DNA from: a virus
Lineage: Duplodnaviria > Caudoviricetes
DNA length: 64,000 bases
Virus record (IMG/VR): IMGVR_UViG_3300027753_000007
Coordinates: 13,056 to 77,055 of that record
Reading direction: 5' to 3' (one strand)
This document shows, one piece after another, positions 12,458 to 49,128 of this stretch. Positions within the stretch are counted from its first letter, which is position 1, and the number at the start of each line of letters is the position of its first letter. A program made the translations under genes and the position numbers. Under the pieces are notes generated by a model. That model searched no databases. It saw only the letters and a program-made list of their open reading frames with translations, and was not told where the DNA came from.

Positions 12458-13438
12458 TTAGCTATTAGTCTGGCGACTCTTCAGTCGAGCTAACATATCC
12501 TTCACCTTATCGTTAGGGGCTGTTTCTGCTGGAGCCGTAGTGACTTCAGCATCTACTGCCGCTTCTGGTGCCGGGGTTACAGGAGCTGGTGCTTCTGCTG
12601 CTGGCGCTGATGCCTTTACTGGCGCAGCTGGAACAGCATCATCTTCTTTCCACTCTAGTCCGTATGGACGATAGTAATTAGCCCACTTAGCTGGATCATA
12701 CAGTTCACCGGCCAAAGACGCTTCAAACATCTCACGGATTGCATTAATGCCGTCAGCCGTTGGGCGTGCTGGCATCCAATCTTCAAGTTTGAACAAACCA
12801 AACTTTTCGAGCTGCTCTGCTTGTTCTTCGCTTAGAGCTGTTTCCTGTCGCGCCCACTTAGACGTACTGTAATCGCTGTATTCGCCTTTCTTTGTGCGCT
12901 GAATACGGAAGTCAGTACCGTTTAAGTAGTCCGTCGGTGAATTCAACATATCAGGATCACTTAGCGACTCTTTAATAATGTTAAAGATCTGTGGTCCGAT
13001 GATGAACCTACGGATTGGGTTCTCGGGAGCTGCTTCGTTTAGTGGGTCTTGGTTTACAAAGCCTTGGAAGAAATATGAACGCTTCTTCCAATAACGCCTT
13101 GCTGTTTCCTTCATCTCAGTATCATTCCACCAAGGGCGGATTTCTGCTGTTACTGGGCAAGTGTCGCCCCACATCTCTACGCATGGTACTTTAATGGTGA
13201 TAGACCTATTCTCGTCTCCACCCTTCACACCTGCGAATGTGAGATTAATCAACTGCCTTTCCTTCCAGAAAAAGACGTTATCTGGATCGGCATCAGGTAG
13301 CAAACGAACGCTTACGCTTTCGCCGACTGGGATGTTCCAAAAGGGGTATGTCAAGGAAGGTTCGTTACTCCGGGCTCCGCCTGCCCTCTTATCTTCCATT
13401 TGCTTTAACTTCGCGCGGATTTCTTCTAATGTTGCCAT
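12458..13438 (-). CDS. 32: Single-stranded DNA-binding protein, T4 gp32-like
   Basis: MATLEEIRAKL, VRLLPD, CPV..EIRPW, YWKKRSY, IRRFIIGPQIF, YSDYSTSKW; Ala/Pro tail. Confidence 0.9.
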   Translation of the reverse strand: MATLEEIRAKLKQMEDKRAGGARSNEPSLTYPFWNIPVGESVSVRLLPDADPDNVFFWKERQLINLTFAGVKGGDENRSITIKVPCVEMWGDTCPVTAEIRPWWNDTEMKETARRYWKKRSYFFQGFVNQDPLNEAAPENPIRRFIIGPQIFNIIKESLSDPDMLNSPTDYLNGTDFRIQRTKKGEYSDYSTSKWARQETALSEEQAEQLEKFGLFKLEDWMPARPTADGINAIREMFEASLAGELYDPAKWANYYRPYGLEWKEDDAVPAAPVKASAPAAEAPAPVTPAPEAAVDAEVTTAPAETAPNDKVKDMLARLKSRQTNS

Positions 13439-27872: not shown

Positions 27873-28331
27873 CTAATTGTGCGGTCTTGGTCGCGGGGTG
27901 TCGTCATTGTGACGGTCACGTGGGACTCGACGAGGATGCTTTTTGGGTGGTGGAGGTGGGGGTGGCACATGGCGGCGAGGTGGTGGGTGACGCGCTGGGG
28001 GTGGAGCAGGTGGCGGCACGTGGCGATATGGTGGCGGAGGGTGGCGTACAGGTGGTGGTGGCGGTGGTGTATGCCTGATTGGCGGTAGATCATAATAGCG
28101 GTGATGGACGTAATTCGGTGGGGCATAATAATAGCGGTAGCCCATATCACCGTACACTCTGTAACCATTGTAGTATGAATCGTTATAATAGCCTAAGGTA
28201 TAATGAATGTATCCTGTTGGATGAAGATGTGAACCGTATGAATGACCTGCGTGGTAATCTACTACGGTGTATTCCCAACCTGCACAACCTGATAATGTTA
28301 ATAATGCAAGAGCTATAAATAATTTACGCAT
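27873..28331 (-). CDS. Lipoprotein with Tyr/His-rich middle and Pro/His/Arg-rich tail
   Basis: MRKLFIALALLTLSGC lipobox; RH(V/P/T)PPP repeats. Confidence 0.75.
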   Translation of the reverse strand: MRKLFIALALLTLSGCAGWEYTVVDYHAGHSYGSHLHPTGYIHYTLGYYNDSYYNGYRVYGDMGYRYYYAPPNYVHHRYYDLPPIRHTPPPPPPVRHPPPPYRHVPPPAPPPARHPPPRRHVPPPPPPPKKHPRRVPRDRHNDDTPRPRPHN

Positions 28332-30307: not shown

Positions 30308-30508
30308 AATCAATAACTTATAAAAAAATGAATGAGGTAACCTATTGAATTATATAGGGTTCTCACACCGAGAATCAAAGACTTACATCGATCTGGAAAA
30401 CCTAGCAGCACACTGATGCACGATCCGTAATAGAATCGCACAGAGCGCACTCCTAGTATCAGAATCAAAGACTTACGTGTTCCTGTGCAGCCCTAAATCA
30501 AAGACTTA
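30308..30508 (+). promoter_or_regulatory. Four IHF-consensus boxes
   Basis: AATCAATAACTTA at 30308; AATCAAAGACTTA at 30373, 30463 and 30496. Confidence 0.65.
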
Positions 30509-31159
30509 CTTCTTGTTTCGCTTGCTCTTAGGTTTACGCTTGTAAACGGTGTCAAGGCCAGGTTTGCCCCAATCGTCAATGCCTAGTAATTCAACAACCT
30601 CATATCCAAGCTCAAACAAGAATTCTGCGGCCACCTTGTCTTTTTCTGGATGGATTGTCTCCAACACAATGACGGGGGAGCAGCGGTCGATTAATTCCTT
30701 GCCGCCTTGTAACGCTTCTAGCTCATGACCTTCCACGTCCAAATGTATCAGTCCAACATCACCAATCAAGTCATCCATCAAAATTACATGGAAATCATCT
30801 CCTGGTGTTACGAAGAAGCCGCCGCTATTGGTTCGGTCAGCGGTATACATATTTACACGCTTACGCTTGTTGCTGAAGCATGCCTGTATTTTGGTTACGT
30901 TTTCTTCATGGACGTTTGTTGTGAGACAAAAGAAGTTTCTACCTTGCGGTTCAACTGCATAAATATGTCTAAACATATATGCATACTGTTTCGTATAGAT
31001 ACCAGCGTGGGCTCCAGCATGGATGCATGTGTCAAAGTTACTGACATGTTTCCTTATCCGCTGCGGCAAATCCATTTCGTTATTTAGCCACATCCACGCA
31101 CCAATATCATCTTTTGGCCAAACCCAACTATCTCTCATCTCTACATCATGTTTATACAT
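30506..31159 (-). CDS. FkbM-family SAM-dependent methyltransferase
   Basis: CIHAGAHAG, YAVEPQ..NF, LIHLDVEGHE..ALQG, PVIVLE; GGAGG RBS supports the start at 31159. Confidence 0.85.
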   Translation of the reverse strand: MYKHDVEMRDSWVWPKDDIGAWMWLNNEMDLPQRIRKHVSNFDTCIHAGAHAGIYTKQYAYMFRHIYAVEPQGRNFFCLTTNVHEENVTKIQACFSNKRKRVNMYTADRTNSGGFFVTPGDDFHVILMDDLIGDVGLIHLDVEGHELEALQGGKELIDRCSPVIVLETIHPEKDKVAAEFLFELGYEVVELLGIDDWGKPGLDTVYKRKPKSKRNKK

Positions 31160-31209
31160 TGTTATCCTCCGTGTGTATTTACTATATATGGAGTCCAAGC
31201 GACACTGAA

Positions 31210-31228
31210 AAAGGGCATTTCTGCCCTC
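31210..31228 (-). terminator. Intrinsic terminator closing the NAD/radical SAM operon
   Basis: AGGGCA-gaaa-TGCCCT followed by a T tract on the minus strand. Confidence 0.8.
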
Positions 31229-31242
31229 GTTCAGCCAAGATG

Positions 31243-31392
31243 TTAGTCTTCCTGGGTTTCTAGTGCTTCTGTAACCAGGCACATCTGTCCGCAGGCGGCA
31301 CCTGCTTGGACTTCGGCTTCGGTTGCGATTGCTACTGCACCTTCAAAACCAGCTTCTTCAATTTCATTCACAATTTCATTTACCTGTTTCAT
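31243..31392 (-). CDS. 49-aa acidic peptide carrying the RlmN C-terminal AACGQ motif (not in the ORF track)
   Basis: MKQVNEIVNEIEEAGFEGAVAIATEAEVQAGAACGQMCLVTEALETQED; own AAGGAG RBS. Confidence 0.8.
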   Translation of the reverse strand: MKQVNEIVNEIEEAGFEGAVAIATEAEVQAGAACGQMCLVTEALETQED

Positions 31393-31402
31393 TTCATTCT
31401 CC

Positions 31403-32263
31403 TTAGATTGTGTTCTCGTATGTAAATAATGTCTTCAATGAATTTTCATCGGAGACAGGGTTTTCGTTTATTGGCGACACCTTAATGAACACGGTCTTAG
31501 GATCAAACTGTGTTCTTAGGTGGTTGGCGTCAAATGGTGTGCCTTCAGCAAGAGCAAAATTCAGCGTTGCTTTCCAAGGGCGGTTTGGGAACCTGTAGTA
31601 CCAAGATGCTGCCAACTTGCCAATGTCTTCATTGGACATAACTGTAATAGACTGTAGCCACTTGCGGTATTCGTCGTCTGTGCTGTGGATACTAAATTGC
31701 AGCTCTAACCAATCGTTTCCGTATATTTCTTCAAGCACCATCAATTGATCTACCAGTTCTACTGACCTTGGAATACCAATAGTGGAAACTTGGATGCGAG
31801 CTTTCGGGAACATTACCTTGATGCGATTAACTGCCTGCACAACTTCATCTATGTTCATCGCAGGCTCGCCCATCCTCGTAAACAACACCCTAAAAATTCC
31901 GCTGTCGTTTGGATCAAGACCACCGTTGATCTTTTGTGCTTCCGCAATCGCATACGTTACTTGGTCTACCATTTCTTGGGCAGTAAGATTACGCCAGTGT
32001 TGCTTATCCGTCAAGCGGTTGACCGCACAAAATTTGCATTTGATTGGGCAACCAGACTGTGTGCTAATGCCTACCGTCCACTTCTCCTTCCAGTTTTGAA
32101 TCGAGAAGGCATTAGCATCCACTTTGTTGTCTTTGCGGTGGGTATTACGCACCTCAGTTTGACCAGGTAAGCAGGTCGAGGTTGTTTCAATCAGCAAATT
32201 GTCATTCAATTGCACAACTGATACAAAACCGTTTGTGAACTGTTTTGTTTTTAGAGCGTTCAT
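31403..32263 (-). CDS. RlmN/Cfr-like radical SAM protein, C-terminally truncated
   Basis: STQSGCPIKCKFC (CxxxCxxC), RNLTAQEMVDQV, MGEP, VSTIG, FSIHS; no AACGQ; TVGIS where RlmN has TLCVS. Confidence 0.85.
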   Translation of the reverse strand: MNALKTKQFTNGFVSVVQLNDNLLIETTSTCLPGQTEVRNTHRKDNKVDANAFSIQNWKEKWTVGISTQSGCPIKCKFCAVNRLTDKQHWRNLTAQEMVDQVTYAIAEAQKINGGLDPNDSGIFRVLFTRMGEPAMNIDEVVQAVNRIKVMFPKARIQVSTIGIPRSVELVDQLMVLEEIYGNDWLELQFSIHSTDDEYRKWLQSITVMSNEDIGKLAASWYYRFPNRPWKATLNFALAEGTPFDANHLRTQFDPKTVFIKVSPINENPVSDENSLKTLFTYENTI

Positions 32264-33765
32264 TACGCCACCTCGCTTTCAACCTTTGCAGTGTGTACAC
32301 GTTCCTCAGGCAGTTTTGCGTTTTCGCGCACCTGCTCAAAGTTCATGTCTCGCACAAGCTTGCCATGATCGTATACAGTCTCAAGCATTGCCTTGTAACC
32401 GTCAGCTACGTATTCAGCAACTTCCTCAACTCGCACTGTCTTGTAGTCTGTACCGTTGTACAGCAATTCCAAGCGACCAGCTTTGGACTTCTTAAAACTT
32501 GAAGCGAGGGGCTTCCAGCTTGTTGCATCGTAGATAGTCGGATCTTTGTACACATCATGCCACACACCGTCAACATGAACCGCGCAAGCCTTCATCGCAA
32601 ACTTGAGGGTGTCCCTGTTATTTTTTTGCAGCAAGCCGCCGCCCATACCAAACGCAATGTTGCTAATGCTAAACTGTTCAGCTTCCAGCTTCTCAACAAT
32701 TGCTCGCACATCGTTAATGTCAATGCCGTCACCTTGGATCACGCGCACACCGTCAAGAACTTTAAAGCCTTTCTTGTTGTACGTAAATCCAAAGATCCTG
32801 GACAACCTGCGCACCAATTCGACAGGGGTCTCAACTGCATCGCCGCTGTCAGGACGGATGACCCAAGTCGCGCCGCTTTCGCGTAACTGCTTCTTAAACT
32901 TGGGAGCAATCGTTTCCACAAAGTTCATAATGTCGTAACTGTCAGCGACCGTAGCGAAAATTGCGCCAGGTTTTGCAAAGTTGTCAAACATACGCTGCAC
33001 CAGTGCCTCTTCGCCGTGGCGTCCAAAGCTTGTGGTCGTGCTATGTTCTGTAGCAGGAATGCTGTAGCCAGCCATTTGCGTGTTATAGCCGATGTTCGCA
33101 GCCATAATACCCACTGTCGTATCGCTTCCGAGGAAGTTTACAAGGTGAGCAGCACCTGCAAATGCAGCGGTTTCCAAACTACTCACACCACGTGAACCAA
33201 AGTCATGCAGTTTAAAACCGATTTCTGCATCAGCGTCGTCGGCTGTGCGCTTCAGTGCGTTGTAGATGATCTTTTTAATGTGGTAGGATGTCGTTGCAAC
33301 CGTTGTAGGTGACCAGAGCCTCATCAGCTTGGTTTCCATGTATGTGACCAGCGAGAATACGCGCGGATCTTCCACGGTCGTCTCAACTGTCACCAACACG
33401 TTGCCCGTAGGAACCACTGTGCCTTCTTGGACTGCTTTGATTCGCAGCGGCATGTAGCCGTCGTAGTCGTCAACTACTGCTCGTAGCGCAACCTCAAGCT
33501 TGTCAATTTCTACACCAAATAGGTGTTCACGCTGGAAGGCGATGATGTTGTCCACTTGTTTGTGGGTCATTCTTTCCAGGAAGTATTCTTTGAGGATTAG
33601 CTGCAATCCGAAGAATACCACTTCTTTATAATCGCCGCCTCTGCTCTCAATGTAGCTCATCAGCTTGTCAGCACCTTCTACATACTGTGCAGGGTGCGAA
33701 AATTTGTAGCTGTCTGTATCGCCAGCAACGCCATATGTTTCTCTAATTTCATTTAAAATGCTCAT
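32263..33765 (-). CDS. nadV: Nicotinamide phosphoribosyltransferase (NAMPT)
   Basis: DTDSYKFSH, LHDFGSRG, SIPATEHS, DSYD, IRPDSGD, IQGDG, FGMGGGLLQ. Confidence 0.95.
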   Translation of the reverse strand: MSILNEIRETYGVAGDTDSYKFSHPAQYVEGADKLMSYIESRGGDYKEVVFFGLQLILKEYFLERMTHKQVDNIIAFQREHLFGVEIDKLEVALRAVVDDYDGYMPLRIKAVQEGTVVPTGNVLVTVETTVEDPRVFSLVTYMETKLMRLWSPTTVATTSYHIKKIIYNALKRTADDADAEIGFKLHDFGSRGVSSLETAAFAGAAHLVNFLGSDTTVGIMAANIGYNTQMAGYSIPATEHSTTTSFGRHGEEALVQRMFDNFAKPGAIFATVADSYDIMNFVETIAPKFKKQLRESGATWVIRPDSGDAVETPVELVRRLSRIFGFTYNKKGFKVLDGVRVIQGDGIDINDVRAIVEKLEAEQFSISNIAFGMGGGLLQKNNRDTLKFAMKACAVHVDGVWHDVYKDPTIYDATSWKPLASSFKKSKAGRLELLYNGTDYKTVRVEEVAEYVADGYKAMLETVYDHGKLVRDMNFEQVRENAKLPEERVHTAKVESEVA

Positions 33766-33795: not shown

Positions 33796-33993
33796 TTACA
33801 GGGCTTTTACGTTACCTAATTCAACTTTCACTTCAACATTTTTAAACGTTGCTATTGTCTGCTCGCTACGTTCAGGATATGTCATTCCTACGTTAATACT
33901 AACACCTAACGTTTTAAGACCTTGCGCATTATAGTGGGCTTCAATAATCTTCGTTAGCTGTTCTTTGCTTACTACAATTGTTGCAATAGTCAT
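33796..33993 (-). CDS. Small hypothetical protein
   Basis: Operonic overlap with neighbours. Confidence 0.6.
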   Translation of the reverse strand: MTIATIVVSKEQLTKIIEAHYNAQGLKTLGVSINVGMTYPERSEQTIATFKNVEVKVELGNVKAL

Positions 33994-34517
33994 TTCTGTT
34001 CTCCTTTCTCATGTTCTAATATATGCTTTTCGCCAAGCTCTATAATTGCTGCGCGCCGCGCATCACTTAAATCTGTTGGAGATATTGCAAAATCTACGTG
34101 GGATACAAAAACACTGAATACACCGTGTTCATCTCGTTGCCAATGTCCGCGATGAATTCGATATGCACAGTATTCTTGCACCTCATCATATTCAGTTCCG
34201 TCTGGACGAACCTTTCTTTCTACAATTGGCTTCGGAATATTTACGATGAATCTTATGACTGAACCTGGCTCACACATCTTCGACATTACTTCGTGACCAG
34301 CCTCAACCGAATCGTACGTTGGAAGCGTTAACCATTGCAAAAGGCGTAAATACTTCGCTAACTTTTCGCCGCTTGTCTCGGTTAATCCTAGAACCGCGGC
34401 TTCTGCTTCTGTCCAGCGTTTTGCAGTAGCATCATCAACTCCGTGCAAATGCCGCATGAGGTGTGCCTGATTCTTCATAAAAGTTTTTAGTTCTTGTACG
34501 TTCATTTCTTGCTCCAC
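33990..34517 (-). CDS. Hypothetical protein
   Basis: Operonic overlap with neighbours. Confidence 0.65.
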   Translation of the reverse strand: MEQEMNVQELKTFMKNQAHLMRHLHGVDDATAKRWTEAEAAVLGLTETSGEKLAKYLRLLQWLTLPTYDSVEAGHEVMSKMCEPGSVIRFIVNIPKPIVERKVRPDGTEYDEVQEYCAYRIHRGHWQRDEHGVFSVFVSHVDFAISPTDLSDARRAAIIELGEKHILEHEKGEQK

Positions 34518-34849
34518 GTATATTGACTGGGATTCTGCGCTTCCAATATTAGTTGCATTTCTACTTCGCGAGCCTTACGTTCTGCTTGCTTCTGTCCCTC
34601 AGTCTTAAACAATGTGTCTGTGGTGTTTGCCAAATTGTGTTTAAAATATAGCTTGTCAGCTTCACGCCTCGTAGCAAACACTTCTTCCTTCTTCCAACGT
34701 TCCAAGCTTCCTTGCATTACGTTGTCGTTAATATGCATCATCAGTTTGTATTCTTTCAATATGCTACGTATGTTCGTAGTGTGACCTACCACACGTGCCT
34801 TAACTACACCAAGTGCCGTCACTGCATATACCGTTTCACCAAATCTCAT
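34502..34849 (-). CDS. Hypothetical protein
   Basis: ATGA coupling to the NMNAT-Nudix gene. Confidence 0.65.
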   Translation of the reverse strand: MRFGETVYAVTALGVVKARVVGHTTNIRSILKEYKLMMHINDNVMQGSLERWKKEEVFATRREADKLYFKHNLANTTDTLFKTEGQKQAERKAREVEMQLILEAQNPSQYTWSKK

Positions 34850-35892
34850 TGGTCAGCCCTCGTTGTAAGCATGTTGATGATTGACTTGTGGTCCTCAAAC
34901 AGCGAGTGAGACATGTTCTTAACTGTGTCTAGCGCGAACCACTTTGCTGTTTCCGCATCGTCGCCGCCTTTCACTTTTGGCAGTGAGGGCTGGTCGGGTA
35001 GGTCAAACAAAAACGCTTGTGTAATTGTGCGACCACGTAATGACCTGCTAGGGTGGTCAAACAGTTTGCGGGCTTTGCATGATCCGCGCAACACTGCTTC
35101 CGGCACCTTCAATCTGGTTTCTTCCTTCAGTTCGCGTATTGCGCTATCAAACGCAGTCTCGTCTTGACCGAGGAAGCCGCCAGGAAGTGCCCAGAGACCC
35201 TTGCCTGGTTCTGCGCGCCGCCTAATAAGTAGGATGTGTCCGCCCTGTATTACAACTGCGTCTGTGGTGAAAAATGTCACAGGATATGGCGTGTGCGCCC
35301 ATGCAGTTTTGTACGTGCGGATGTAATTGAATTCTTTAACAAGCTGGGCGTATGCCTCAGTGTCTTTGAAGGTCATCAGCGTCTCGTAAACTGACACTGG
35401 CAGTGCCGATTTTATGTAGCTAAAATGTCCTTCAAAATATAGTTCGCGTATCTTCGTTGCGTCAATTGCAGTGCCGCCAGCCTCAGCGTATGCACCAATA
35501 GTCGTAAAGTCCCAGGTCGGGAAGCTTTTTAGGTAGTAGCTGGAATCATCTTTTTCATGACCGAGGATTGTAATGTCCTCGTCGTTTGTTTCCCAGTTGT
35601 GGACTGCGGCTTGGACAGCCTCCAGCCATTTTGTTTCTTGGTATAGGTCATCTTCAACAGATGCTACCCGCACTCGCCAATTTCCTTCGGCTTTGGTGCC
35701 CCAAAGAGATTCTATTTGGGCTGTGCGTTCTTCAACTGTAAAGGGATTTTTGATTGTGCGCGGCTCATTGGACGAGCCTAAGACCACAAGAACCTGGTCT
35801 GCAATTTCTAAAGCTTTGTTTATGTTTTGGACGTGCCCGTTGTGTAGTGGCTGCATCCTGCCGATGAATACGGCTAATTTGTATTTACGCAT
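34846..35892 (-). CDS. Bifunctional NMN adenylyltransferase / ADP-ribose Nudix hydrolase (NatV/NadM-Nudix-like)
   Basis: GRMQPLHNGH (HxGH), DATKIR; Nudix box GGFLGQDETAFDSAIRELKEET, RSLRGRTIT, GGDDA. Confidence 0.93.
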   Translation of the reverse strand: MRKYKLAVFIGRMQPLHNGHVQNINKALEIADQVLVVLGSSNEPRTIKNPFTVEERTAQIESLWGTKAEGNWRVRVASVEDDLYQETKWLEAVQAAVHNWETNDEDITILGHEKDDSSYYLKSFPTWDFTTIGAYAEAGGTAIDATKIRELYFEGHFSYIKSALPVSVYETLMTFKDTEAYAQLVKEFNYIRTYKTAWAHTPYPVTFFTTDAVVIQGGHILLIRRRAEPGKGLWALPGGFLGQDETAFDSAIRELKEETRLKVPEAVLRGSCKARKLFDHPSRSLRGRTITQAFLFDLPDQPSLPKVKGGDDAETAKWFALDTVKNMSHSLFEDHKSIINMLTTRADQ

Positions 35893-35981: not shown

Positions 35982-36010
35982 AGTATAACACCATTAAACA
36001 GTAATGTCAA
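35982..36010 (-). promoter_or_regulatory. Sigma70-type promoter of the NAD operon
   Basis: TTGACA-17-TATACT. Confidence 0.8.
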
Positions 36011-44380: not shown

Positions 44381-46660
44381 CTACCTGTTGTCAATCATCT
44401 TCACATAATCAATCATTAGTTGCCATTTGTCTTTCCCAATGCGATTGTAGTAATCGTTGCCCAACTTGACCACACTCAACATTGGGTATTTGGTTTTTAT
44501 CTTATCTACCAACTTCTCCACGGCCACTTCGTTTGAGTCCAGGCTATATTTGTCAAAGTTCTTCTTGGGGAAGAGCTTGCGCATTGAAGCAAGGATGTTA
44601 TTGAAGCGGGATACTGCGGTCCGCATTGCGGCATCATTCTTCTTTGCGTCGCGGCACTCCAAATACATAGTAGCCAACTGTCCAAAAGAAGTATTTGGGC
44701 TAACCGCTACATAATTCTCTAATGCCTTGACTGAGACATTTGTAAAATCGACCAAATCAATAATCTGTGACCTGTTCTCTACGAGCAGGGCAGCATTGCG
44801 AAGCTTGTTCCAATCCAGCTTGTCAAACTTAGCTTCAATATAATCGAAGAAGTTTTTCCAATCCGTCTTTTCCTGGATAGCCTTTGTGGACGTCTTCAAC
44901 ACACCGTAAAGGTGGTCTGTCAAATTGAATCCACACAGTTCCTGGACTACGTCCTTGTATGTCTCTACAAACCCTTCCGCGCTATAGCTGTGGTTTTCAC
45001 CAACAATAGTCTTATTCATCAGCGGCACATAAAGGAATGTCGTATCAACTGACGGCTCAAGATCGGCAAAATCATCTTCTGCCTTAACTAGTGTCCACAT
45101 CCTTGAACCATAGCGACCGTTGTCCCTTTGTTCAAAATTCAAAACACCGATCTGTCTCTCGATCTTGCCGGCTGCGCCTTTTACGTTTCCAGGCATGTCG
45201 CTGGTTCTAAAAACTTGGCTTGCATGCGGACGACCAAGCATCTTCAATGCCTTCTTGAACGCCGCTTCAGGATCAGCCTTCTTATCAGTGGGCTTTATAA
45301 CCACAAATTCCATTCCGCGCATCTTCGGGAACATTTTTGCGTTATATGCCGCCTTAATCCTGCGGTTAGCATCGCCAACGCCATCATGCAGAACAACATA
45401 CGTCTCCGCTGGGCACCAAACGAGGCAACCAGATGTGTTTTCAAAATACTGTGCACCGTTGTTGCTCATCCGCAGACCATCACCGTTGCGTGAACTGATG
45501 TGGTGGATTTGGTTGCTAACAAACCTCAGATCAGGAAACTTCTTGATAAGGGTCGGGTACTCAATACCTGCCTTATAGTCCGTGTAACCGATCTTAGACA
45601 TGCTGTCAACCTTCTTGGGGTTGTCCTGTATCCAGCGTATAATGGCTGGCCTAAAGAAGTCCGCGTTCGTTGCCATCAATTCGTTAAAAAGTACACCACG
45701 TTCCCACGGGGACTTCTTTGTCTTCAGTTTTTCTTCGAGGTAGACGACCAATCCTGCGAGGATTTCCTCGCCCTTGCGTTCCAGCGTCTTCTTTGTCAGC
45801 GGAACGTAACTCAACTCTTCCCTCGAAGCAGCAATGTCCAGTTCGCCAATTTCAAATTCAATCGCTACGCCAAGGTTGTCGTAAACATTCTCCAACTCCT
45901 TGCTGAGGTTTGCGTTTTTGGCGTTGATCGGATAGGCCACGTTACCCATAACCGCCACAGAGTCGGGGCGGCTCCAGCTACTCTCCGGCTTCAAAATATG
46001 CACGCCAGGAACAATGTTTTCCTGCGAGTATTCTTGCTTCTCTACTGTAAGATCTACACCCTCAAAAGTTGGGGTGACCTTGAACCATTTGAAGACGCCC
46101 CGTGCTTCGCGTTCAAAATAGCGCACATCGTCGCGCTCTACGGGGAAGGACACCTCTACGCCGTTGCCTTCGGTTGTCTTTTCTTCGGTCAACCGCGCAA
46201 TGTTTGGGATGCCTTGGTCGCCAATAAAGGCGCTGTAAACCCGCTTCATGCCATCCTTAATGGCTGTGACACTGAAGTTGGTCGTGTAAGAGAAAGGTGA
46301 CTTGCTACCAAGACCCATGCAGCCCACAAAATCGTTGCTGTCTTGCTTGGTGCTTTCAAAATAGGTTGTGTAGATGTTGATAACGCCGTCATTATCCAGA
46401 CCAACACCGTAATCACGGATGCTGAGGGTCGGGTTCAACCTCGTAGGAAGGTGAACAGTGAACGGAACGTCTGCTTTGCCTGCGGCAACGTGACTGTCAT
46501 AAGCATTACAGCCCAGCTCTCGCAGGATTGCTTGGTACTTATTGGAGTACAGGCCGCTGGATAGGATCGAAAACGCCTTTGCGGAGTTCTTGATGCGGAA
46601 CTCGCCTTGGGTTTGCAGCCCACTTGTCAATACGGGAGTCGATTTGACTTCTAACTTCAT
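44381..46660 (-). CDS. rIIA: rIIA-like protein (GHKL ATPase N-domain)
   Basis: LSSGLYSNK..AILRELGCNAYDSH, IRDYGVGL, GCMGLGSKSPFSY, VMGNVAYP, SREELSY. Confidence 0.93.
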   Translation of the reverse strand: MKLEVKSTPVLTSGLQTQGEFRIKNSAKAFSILSSGLYSNKYQAILRELGCNAYDSHVAAGKADVPFTVHLPTRLNPTLSIRDYGVGLDNDGVINIYTTYFESTKQDSNDFVGCMGLGSKSPFSYTTNFSVTAIKDGMKRVYSAFIGDQGIPNIARLTEEKTTEGNGVEVSFPVERDDVRYFEREARGVFKWFKVTPTFEGVDLTVEKQEYSQENIVPGVHILKPESSWSRPDSVAVMGNVAYPINAKNANLSKELENVYDNLGVAIEFEIGELDIAASREELSYVPLTKKTLERKGEEILAGLVVYLEEKLKTKKSPWERGVLFNELMATNADFFRPAIIRWIQDNPKKVDSMSKIGYTDYKAGIEYPTLIKKFPDLRFVSNQIHHISSRNGDGLRMSNNGAQYFENTSGCLVWCPAETYVVLHDGVGDANRRIKAAYNAKMFPKMRGMEFVVIKPTDKKADPEAAFKKALKMLGRPHASQVFRTSDMPGNVKGAAGKIERQIGVLNFEQRDNGRYGSRMWTLVKAEDDFADLEPSVDTTFLYVPLMNKTIVGENHSYSAEGFVETYKDVVQELCGFNLTDHLYGVLKTSTKAIQEKTDWKNFFDYIEAKFDKLDWNKLRNAALLVENRSQIIDLVDFTNVSVKALENYVAVSPNTSFGQLATMYLECRDAKKNDAAMRTAVSRFNNILASMRKLFPKKNFDKYSLDSNEVAVEKLVDKIKTKYPMLSVVKLGNDYYNRIGKDKWQLMIDYVKMIDNR

Positions 46661-48690: not shown

Positions 48691-49128
48691 TTAGTCATTC
48701 CCTGAAAGGTCTCTCTCATAAACCTCTTCATCGTATCCTCCTGTGTTATACTCTTTTAAATCTTCAATCATTTGCTGCTCTGCAACAACCTCAGGGCGTG
48801 TTAAAGAATCGGCTTTTTTCATATAGCCTGATTTCCTTGGGTTGGAACAATATCTACAGTATCGTCTGCATGGGCATTTCCACGATTGTTTGCGGAAGCT
48901 GCCGACTTTCTCTTTTGGGAACACCTCGTCGTATGTGTCGTATTCCCAACGATTAACCTCTACACCCTCTCCAGCTAAATCATAATAAAAACGATATTTT
49001 AATGCTCGTTTTGTGCGCAAATGTCTACGCGGATCATAAAACGTATAACGATTATATTGTATCTCTAATCGTATCTGTTTTTGCTGATACTTGGTCGTAA
49101 GGTATCTTCTCTGCTCTCTCTTTTCCAC
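48691..49128 (-). CDS. Basic hypothetical protein with Cys cluster
   Basis: KCPCRRYCRYCSNPRK; GGAGG RBS. Confidence 0.7.
   Translation of the reverse strand: MEKREQRRYLTTKYQQKQIRLEIQYNRYTFYDPRRHLRTKRALKYRFYYDLAGEGVEVNRWEYDTYDEVFPKEKVGSFRKQSWKCPCRRYCRYCSNPRKSGYMKKADSLTRPEVVAEQQMIEDLKEYNTGGYDEEVYERDLSGND

Follow-up and report, generated by a model that had tools for sequence, protein, structure and literature searches.

The core gene, the peptide gene and their operon

The subject of this analysis is a pair of adjacent genes, one for an RlmN-like radical S-adenosylmethionine (SAM) protein and the other for a small cysteine-containing peptide, in a stretch of viral DNA of 64,000 nucleotides (nt) that is called the window throughout (positions 13,056 to 77,055 of the IMG/VR record IMGVR_UViG_3300027753_000007). 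The virus record is ~77 kb long, estimated to be 21% complete, and originates from marine metagenomes. As the original prediction had described, an open reading frame (ORF) of 286 amino acids (aa) with RlmN motifs (31403..32263) ends in TAA, a peptide of 49 aa with a GAACGQM cysteine loop (31243..31392) starts 10 nt past that stop, and a terminator follows. All of these features were confirmed, and they lie on the minus strand, as do the operon features given below. The AAGGAG ribosome-binding site of the peptide gene (31399..31404) overlaps the TAA and stands 6 nt before the ATG. The 286-aa protein is referred to here as the core, and the core and peptide genes together as the module.

The core, peptide, NAMPT and NMNAT-Nudix genes form one operon of the NAD+ salvage type. 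Upstream of it is a sigma-70-like promoter pattern (TTGACA, 17 nt, TATACT, with TG; 35982..36010), a pattern match only, which scored 11/12 in a consensus scan. The first gene encodes a 348-aa NMNAT-Nudix protein (34846..35892; Pfam CTP_transf_like and NUDIX), followed by three ORFs of 65, 175 and 115 aa without Pfam matches (33796-34849) and by the 500-aa NAMPT gene (32263..33765; Pfam NAMPT_N and NAPRTase), the stop of which overlaps the core start codon, both ORFs sharing base 32263. The operon ends in a terminator-like hairpin with a U run (31204..31235), which was shown by RNA folding (-19.5 kcal/mol, z -4.1) and is absent from the listing of a simple terminator scan. Judged from its sequence, the operon appears to hold the gene pair of NARP2, the phage Nampt and Nmnat pathway present in about 1.1% of sequenced phages (bioRxiv 10.1101/2024.02.11.579819), on one strand between the promoter-like site and the terminator-like hairpin.

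Core protein, peptide and the split layout

Methyl transfer by way of an S-methylcysteine that belongs to the enzyme itself, with release by a second cysteine, is known in textbooks from RlmN and Cfr. RlmN is the C2-methyl synthase of 23S rRNA A2503 and tRNA A37 (TIGR00048; PDB 3RFA, 4PL1, 5HR7 and 6FZ6), and Cfr is the C8-methyltransferase of 23S rRNA A2503 (PDB 9P0P). In RlmN, SAM methylates Cys355, a 5'-deoxyadenosyl radical gives rise to a thiomethylene radical that adds to adenine C2, and a second conserved cysteine resolves the adduct (PMC5130265).

The sole Pfam match of the core is Radical_SAM (PF04055), with 36.5 bits against a cut-off of 29.5, which places it in the superfamily. Among the NCBIfam models RlmN (TIGR00048) ranked first, with 66 bits against a cut-off of 290 and over model positions 101-233 only, and the Cfr models came next; lying below this equivalog cut-off and lacking the RlmN N-terminal domain, the core is not RlmN proper. 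A search of PDB sequences gave five matches at E ≤0.01, namely RlmN (6fz6, 4pl1, 5hr6 and 3rf9) and then Cfr. The AlphaFold2 model of the core reached a predicted local distance difference test (pLDDT) score of 91.9, and in Foldseek its ranks 1-10 were all RlmN (E 3.5e-13 to 2.4e-10), followed by Cfr at 4e-7 and by PFL-AE, as the next family, at 1.7e-5, so that the predicted fold is that of an RlmN-type class-A methylase. The motifs CxxxCxxC, MGEP, STxG and SxH are common to core and RlmN, and the cluster motif (Cys72, Cys76 and Cys79; 32027..32050) is invariant in the family alignment.

Three parts of RlmN are missing from the core, namely the N-terminal domain, Cys118 and the C-terminal cysteine segment. 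Core residue 59 aligns with RlmN residue 116, which leaves ~57 N-terminal RlmN residues without a counterpart and bears out the original prediction that the N-terminal RNA-binding helices are missing. The glycine that had been noticed at the Cys118 position was likewise found by both HMMER and BLASTP (TVGISTQSGC against TLCVSSQVGC): it is Gly65 (codon GGC, 32069..32071), which is invariant in the core alignment, and 177 of 179 split-family cores have glycine in this column, where class-A methylases carry the resolving cysteine (Cys118 of RlmN, Cys105 of Cfr). A C-terminal CGQ, the same-chain carrier-cysteine motif, occurs in 0/179 of these cores. The split-core alignment contains no conserved cysteine beyond the three of the cluster; Cys31 (TCLP) was considered as a fourth and rejected, being Phe or Tyr in distant members. 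A conserved insertion of ~25 residues precedes the Gly65 strand. The isoelectric point (pI) of the core ranges from 4.9 to 10.1 across the split family, and charge gives no pointer to the substrate.

The original prediction placed a carrier-type cysteine on the separate peptide, and profile comparison agreed with this. A profile of 34 peptides aligns with residues 333-364 of the 388-aa Klebsiella RlmN, the stretch that ends in AACGQL (hhalign P 1.6e-4), and with residues 249-291 of a 311-aa fused phage family (hhalign P 1.2e-3). The peptides share the core G-F/Y ... A-T-x-A-E ... G-A-A-C-G-Q-L/M and are conserved over their whole length; A32-A33-C34-G35-Q36 is invariant among the 34, and Cys34 (codon TGC, 31291..31293), aligned to the AACGQL motif, is the counterpart of RlmN Cys355. 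They are acidic, with a pI mostly of 4.1-4.5, and without signal features, and many homologous peptide genes have GGAG-type sites upstream, as the window's gene has its AAGGAG. A second cysteine four residues on (CGQMC; Cys38, codon 31279-31281) is limited to the window's close relatives, in which it could serve as a local resolving residue; most family members are without it.

Co-folding of the core with its cluster, SAM and the peptide, run three times, scored 0.83, whereas the best of 3 controls reached 0.00; the mark applied is reached by 58/80 solved complexes and 2/110 mismatched pairs. At least 89% of the contacts are common to the runs, the partner pLDDT is at least 67, and the interface has 155-170 contacts. 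In the predicted complex, peptide residues 16-20 form a strand that pairs with the last strand of the core (258-262), and residues 26-44, including Cys34, touch core residues 79-81 and 131, which would put the cysteine loop at the cluster/SAM site, as the original prediction expected of such a check. Because RlmN structures have been solved and core and peptide correspond to the halves of one fold, the pass may be due to that resemblance, and it is to be read as likeness to solved RlmN and not as proof of binding. Profile match and model together suggest that the peptide is the detached C-terminal helix-strand-loop of an RlmN-type enzyme.

The question of split against fused homologues, also raised by the original prediction, received a clear answer: the split layout is a family trait, and fused families exist beside it. 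At E ≤1e-10, 216 core homologues were found with lengths of 260-304 aa, one of 320 aa having an N-terminal extension only. A same-strand peptide ORF (~40-55 aa, with the conserved peptide core) accompanies the core in 69 of 76 phage loci, which comprise 71 IMG/VR and 5 cultured-phage records, and in 29 of 30 loci from species genomes, most of which are metagenome bins and one of which proved to be a 425,361-bp contig that IMG/VR also lists, as a jumbo phage. In most cases the peptide gene comes straight after the core gene, and it can also sit 1-3 kb downstream, or upstream. Searching 1.84 billion representatives with the peptide profile returned 128 clusters, nearly all of 30-180 aa, and none of these 128 was a C-terminal fusion of the peptide to a core. 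One of them, the metagenomic protein P0243 (315 aa), is a natural permuted fusion, with an N-terminal peptide module, a linker and then a core with Gly at the Cys118 column. Cultured carriers of the module are Vibrio phage D479, Pectobacterium phages Arno18 and Wc4 and Yersinia phage P778; in D479 (L001:3830-4081) the peptide module stands in tandem within one ORF, as two near-identical copies each ending in GAACGQMAIL.

These data also bear on whether the split is an artefact or a decaying gene, its stop stemming from faulty assembly or from a nonsense mutation newly arisen in a normal fused gene. Contigs from two further marine runs (X5 and X6) span the stop/start junction with zero differences, although some parts of the window have no cover in these runs, which are uninformative there, and a third run, which may be the source, spans the entire window at a depth of 38.9. 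The existence of fused relatives is the one point in favour of an artefact, whereas the uniform length of the 216 homologues and the separate start codon and ribosome-binding site that the peptide gene has in dozens of distant phages, some with the gene 1-3 kb away or upstream, speak against it. The junction contigs and the family layout refute a sequencing error, in line with the original prediction, and to the artefact reading as a whole we give next to no credence.

Two loci need separate mention. In L068, the peptide frame continues from a second radical SAM gene without a stop; it was considered as a fusion and rejected, the peptide having its own start and ribosome-binding site. In L074 (2759-4561), the core gene is 600 aa long and carries an intein with a LAGLIDADG homing endonuclease.

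Role of the peptide cysteine

Three phage families of RlmN-like proteins were distinguished: F1, fused, of the Salmonella phage Arash type (~310 aa, 272 IMG/VR loci); F2, fused, of the Bacteroides phage Versailles type (~330 aa, 47 loci); and F3, the split family. F1, whose members include Salmonella phage Arash, Stenotrophomonas phage ANB28, Aeromonas phage Ahp1 and Vibrio phage 166E36-1, keeps Cys at the Cys118 column in 76/76 sequences and the C-terminal CGQ (GGGCGQLW loop) in 75/76. F2 (L082, L194-L240) has Thr at the Cys118 column in 18/18 and one invariant C-terminal cysteine (ITCGNA). The window core matches phrog_24834 at 3e-23, which presumably models the Versailles-type F2 family; F2 appears to be uncharacterised. 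In a quick tree with one long-branched outgroup and no bootstrap, F1, F2 and F3 each formed one clade (SH-aLRT, the Shimodaira-Hasegawa-like approximate likelihood ratio test, 96, 100 and 95, respectively), and F2 and F3 joined with an SH-aLRT of 88 against F1 and RlmN, a grouping that is tentative. The tree of the split family is likewise a quick one, in which rows L057 and L059 are a wrong paralogue and are to be disregarded. Since fused F2 is also without Cys118, this residue can be lost in the absence of a split, and the tree points tentatively to a loss of the resolving cysteine that preceded the split.

Considering the above results, we lean with moderate confidence towards the view that core and peptide are the two pieces of a single class-A (RlmN/Cfr-type) radical SAM enzyme, for which a counter-defence role and an adenine-nucleotide target may be proposed; sequence, model and analogy all enter into this view. 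The 286-aa core would hold the [4Fe-4S]/SAM site, and the peptide would dock by strand addition, bringing the AACGQ loop with Cys34 to the cluster/SAM site, as in the co-fold. By analogy with RlmN, SAM would methylate Cys34, the 5'-deoxyadenosyl radical would turn its S-methyl group into a thiomethylene radical, and this radical would attack an sp2 carbon of the substrate. Because no split-family member has a counterpart of Cys118, the adduct would either be released by another group or persist. Three outcomes are possible: resolution of the adduct by another group, an adduct that is itself the product, or some other chemistry in which the cysteine takes part.

Persistence of the adduct leads to the proposal that the peptide is consumed, that is, that it is a single-use co-substrate which is left on a nucleotide, an RNA or a protein in the form of a stable peptide-S-CH2-substrate thioether, the split making the sacrificed part cheap. 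The RlmN C118A variant forms no 2-methyladenosine (m2A) and traps a covalent adduct (PMC5130265), and the Cys118 column holds glycine in nearly all split cores where fused F1 always has cysteine. The peptide gene has a strong ribosome-binding site of its own, and the tandem double peptide of D479 is a mild argument for dosage. Fused F2, however, lacks Cys118, retains its invariant C-terminal cysteine and groups with the split family, so that under this model a fused enzyme would destroy itself at every turnover. The natural peptide-core fusion P0243 is a further objection, and the predicted buried strand addition, with its many contacts, would suit a stable subunit better than an exchanging reagent. 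Thus, while the split RlmN-like system of the original prediction stands, its suggestion of a consumable left attached to the target is somewhat weakened by F2 and P0243, and we consider it unlikely.

The same pattern of cysteines raises the possibility that the enzyme is no methylase and that the loop cysteine is a hydrogen-atom donor or redox residue, comparable to those of spore photoproduct lyase and radical SAM epimerases. The split and F2 families both keep the loop cysteine alone, without Cys118, the core scores far under the RlmN/Cfr family cut-offs, and the conserved insertion before the Gly65 strand would fit an altered function. We nevertheless find such a different chemistry quite unlikely, given that the A-A-C-G-Q loop motif of RlmN is exactly kept and that the fold of the core model matches RlmN far above any other radical SAM enzyme.

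With its short peptide-coding gene next to one or two genes for radical SAM proteins, the layout also recalls the PqqA/PqqE and MftA/MftC clusters, and the repeated module of D479 is comparable to some multi-core precursors. The original prediction had accordingly allowed that the peptide is a product of the RiPP type (a peptide made on the ribosome and modified after translation), a precursor modified by the radical SAM enzyme and released in bioactive form. The data did not support this. The peptide is conserved throughout, with no leader and variable core; it matches the enzyme's own missing C-terminal segment, and the model predicts that it completes the fold; it is intracellular, acidic and free of signal features; and the co-conserved neighbour genes include no protease, exporter/transporter or recognition domain. 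A RiPP-like role is therefore very improbable, and the two-piece class-A enzyme is the reading carried forward below.

NAD+ operons, the proposed target and known systems

The original prediction had drawn attention to the place of the module in an NAD+ salvage operon, and this placement recurs. In neighbour clustering of the split family, NAMPT (22/77 loci) and NMNAT-Nudix (21/77) were the commonest partners after the peptide. By tblastn, NAMPT lay within 4 kb of the module in 20/76 split-family loci (~26%) and in 25/85 F1 loci (29%), counts from which the size of the enrichment can be gauged only roughly. In the split family these genes lie on one strand, in two main orders: about ten loci, the window among them, have NMNAT, NAMPT, core and peptide, and about seven have NMNAT, core (with extra genes in some cases), peptide and NAMPT. 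The association is scattered over the core tree and needs at least 4-8 changes. In F1, NAMPT and NMNAT are the sole frequent same-strand neighbours, and in Vibrio phage 166E36-1 (L083:1-1346, 1438-2364) the F1 gene comes right after an annotated nicotinamide phosphoribosyltransferase gene, mirroring the window. Rarer F1 neighbours are a nucleoside deoxyribosyltransferase-like gene, a weak Macro-domain match, RtcB and a metallophosphoesterase.

Some split-family loci carry further genes, which are not in the window. In about 20 loci, the core and peptide genes are separated by a second radical SAM gene (~295 aa), and the model of its product (pLDDT 90.6) matched MoaA best over ~290 columns, then viperin-like enzymes with CTP and then BlsE. 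The substrates of these relatives are nucleotides or nucleosides, those of the nearest solved ones being nucleoside triphosphates. Another radical SAM gene, together with a small class-I methyltransferase, occurs in eight loci.

Within the window, Radical_SAM has a second, weak match (15 bits, E 8e-4) in a 145-aa ORF (48691-49128, minus strand) that may encode an NrdG-type activase; an ORF of 759 aa is located close by (44381-46660). Just past the operon terminator is an FkbM-family methyltransferase gene (Pfam Methyltransf_21, phrog_8156; 30506-31282, minus strand), whose true start is probably an internal ATG near 31159. It was considered as a member of the module and rejected, being beyond the terminator and having no counterpart in the 76 related loci. 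A single 166-nt metatranscriptome contig falls inside the core gene; DNA carry-over is possible, and the contig was not counted as evidence of expression. The window further contains a tRNA with anticodon CUA (7270-7345, minus strand), of the amber-suppressor type and labelled tRNA-Pyl by ARAGORN, and a 152-aa ORF (27873-28331, minus strand) with a lipoprotein-like N-terminus (LTLSGC), long proline runs and repeated RH-PPPP units.

The counter-defence role of the two-piece enzyme is suggested because the module sits inside NAMPT and NMNAT-Nudix operons of many unrelated phages. Its most likely target would be an adenine nucleotide of NAD+/ADP-ribose metabolism or signalling, and host tRNA or rRNA is less likely. 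A more specific proposal, which we advance with considerable doubt, is that core and peptide are a third part of many NARP2-type operons and act by radical chemistry on an adenine nucleotide from the sphere of NAD+ and ADP-ribose. What results could then be either an NAD+-type molecule, methylated at carbon, with which the NADases or sensors of defence systems can no longer deal, or an adduct that joins peptide and nucleotide covalently (peptide-CH2-nucleotide). If true, phages would possess a counter-defence of a new kind, and the pair would be the first class-A radical SAM enzyme whose cysteine arm is detachable and whose substrate is not an RNA.

Several observations weigh against the two-piece enzyme or its proposed role, in addition to the rough enrichment mentioned above. 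Neither the single peptide nor the 34-peptide profile found RlmN by HMMER in the PDB at E up to 10, and the homology of the peptide to RlmN is short, resting on the match at the expected place together with the fold prediction. Glycine at the Cys118 column and the lack of a fourth conserved core cysteine mean that canonical methyl transfer is not to be assumed. With regard to NAD+, NAMPT was found near F2 genes in 0/47 loci, and among 22 checked split-family records without an adjacent NAMPT gene, 14 have a NAPRTase-family gene elsewhere and 8 have none. The link could also reflect a shared counter-defence island and not a shared pathway, for which the RtcB, Macro-domain and deoxyribosyltransferase-like neighbours of F1 may be cited.

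Full-text literature searches yielded no publication that describes an RlmN-like system which is split or phage-borne. The family described here is large, conserved and phage-borne, and it breaks two rules of RlmN and Cfr: the carrier cysteine stands on a separate peptide of 40-50 residues, and the releasing cysteine is gone. The mechanistic question is whether there is a new route by which the adduct is resolved or whether a covalent peptide adduct is the product, and its carriage by cultured phages makes this question directly testable. The present analysis gave no indication of C8 or C2 chemistry or of a link to antibiotic resistance.

Compared with known systems, the window pair is closest to RlmN, which is the best match by sequence and by structure, has the same fold and carries, as the pair does, an AACGQ(L/M) loop after a G-F/Y strand. 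Unlike RlmN, the pair has this loop on a separate 49-aa peptide, Gly in place of Cys118 and ~57 fewer N-terminal residues; the peptide tail past the cysteine is short and acidic where that of RlmN is basic, and the pair is phage-borne, lies in an NAD+ salvage operon and scores far under the RlmN family cut-off. Cfr, also a class-A radical SAM methylase, is the second-best family and fold match to the core, and the differences are as for RlmN. F1 proteins are phage-borne, likewise without the RlmN N-terminal domain and 25-30% identical to the window core, and they differ from the split family in being single chains with both cysteines. F2 resembles the split family in having lost Cys118 and kept one loop cysteine, whereas it is a single chain with ITCGNA instead of AACGQL, occurs in smaller gut phages and has no NAMPT link. 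NARP2 shares NMNAT-Nudix and NAMPT with the window operon and has been described as a two-gene pathway, in a paper in which the word 'radical' does not occur (bioRxiv 10.1101/2024.02.11.579819), whereas the window and about 20 other loci embed the radical SAM core and peptide in the operon. This recurrence of the module in NARP2-type operons is new in the present analysis; it gives the first concrete lead to the target of the enzyme and suggests that the published two-gene NARP2 often has extra parts.

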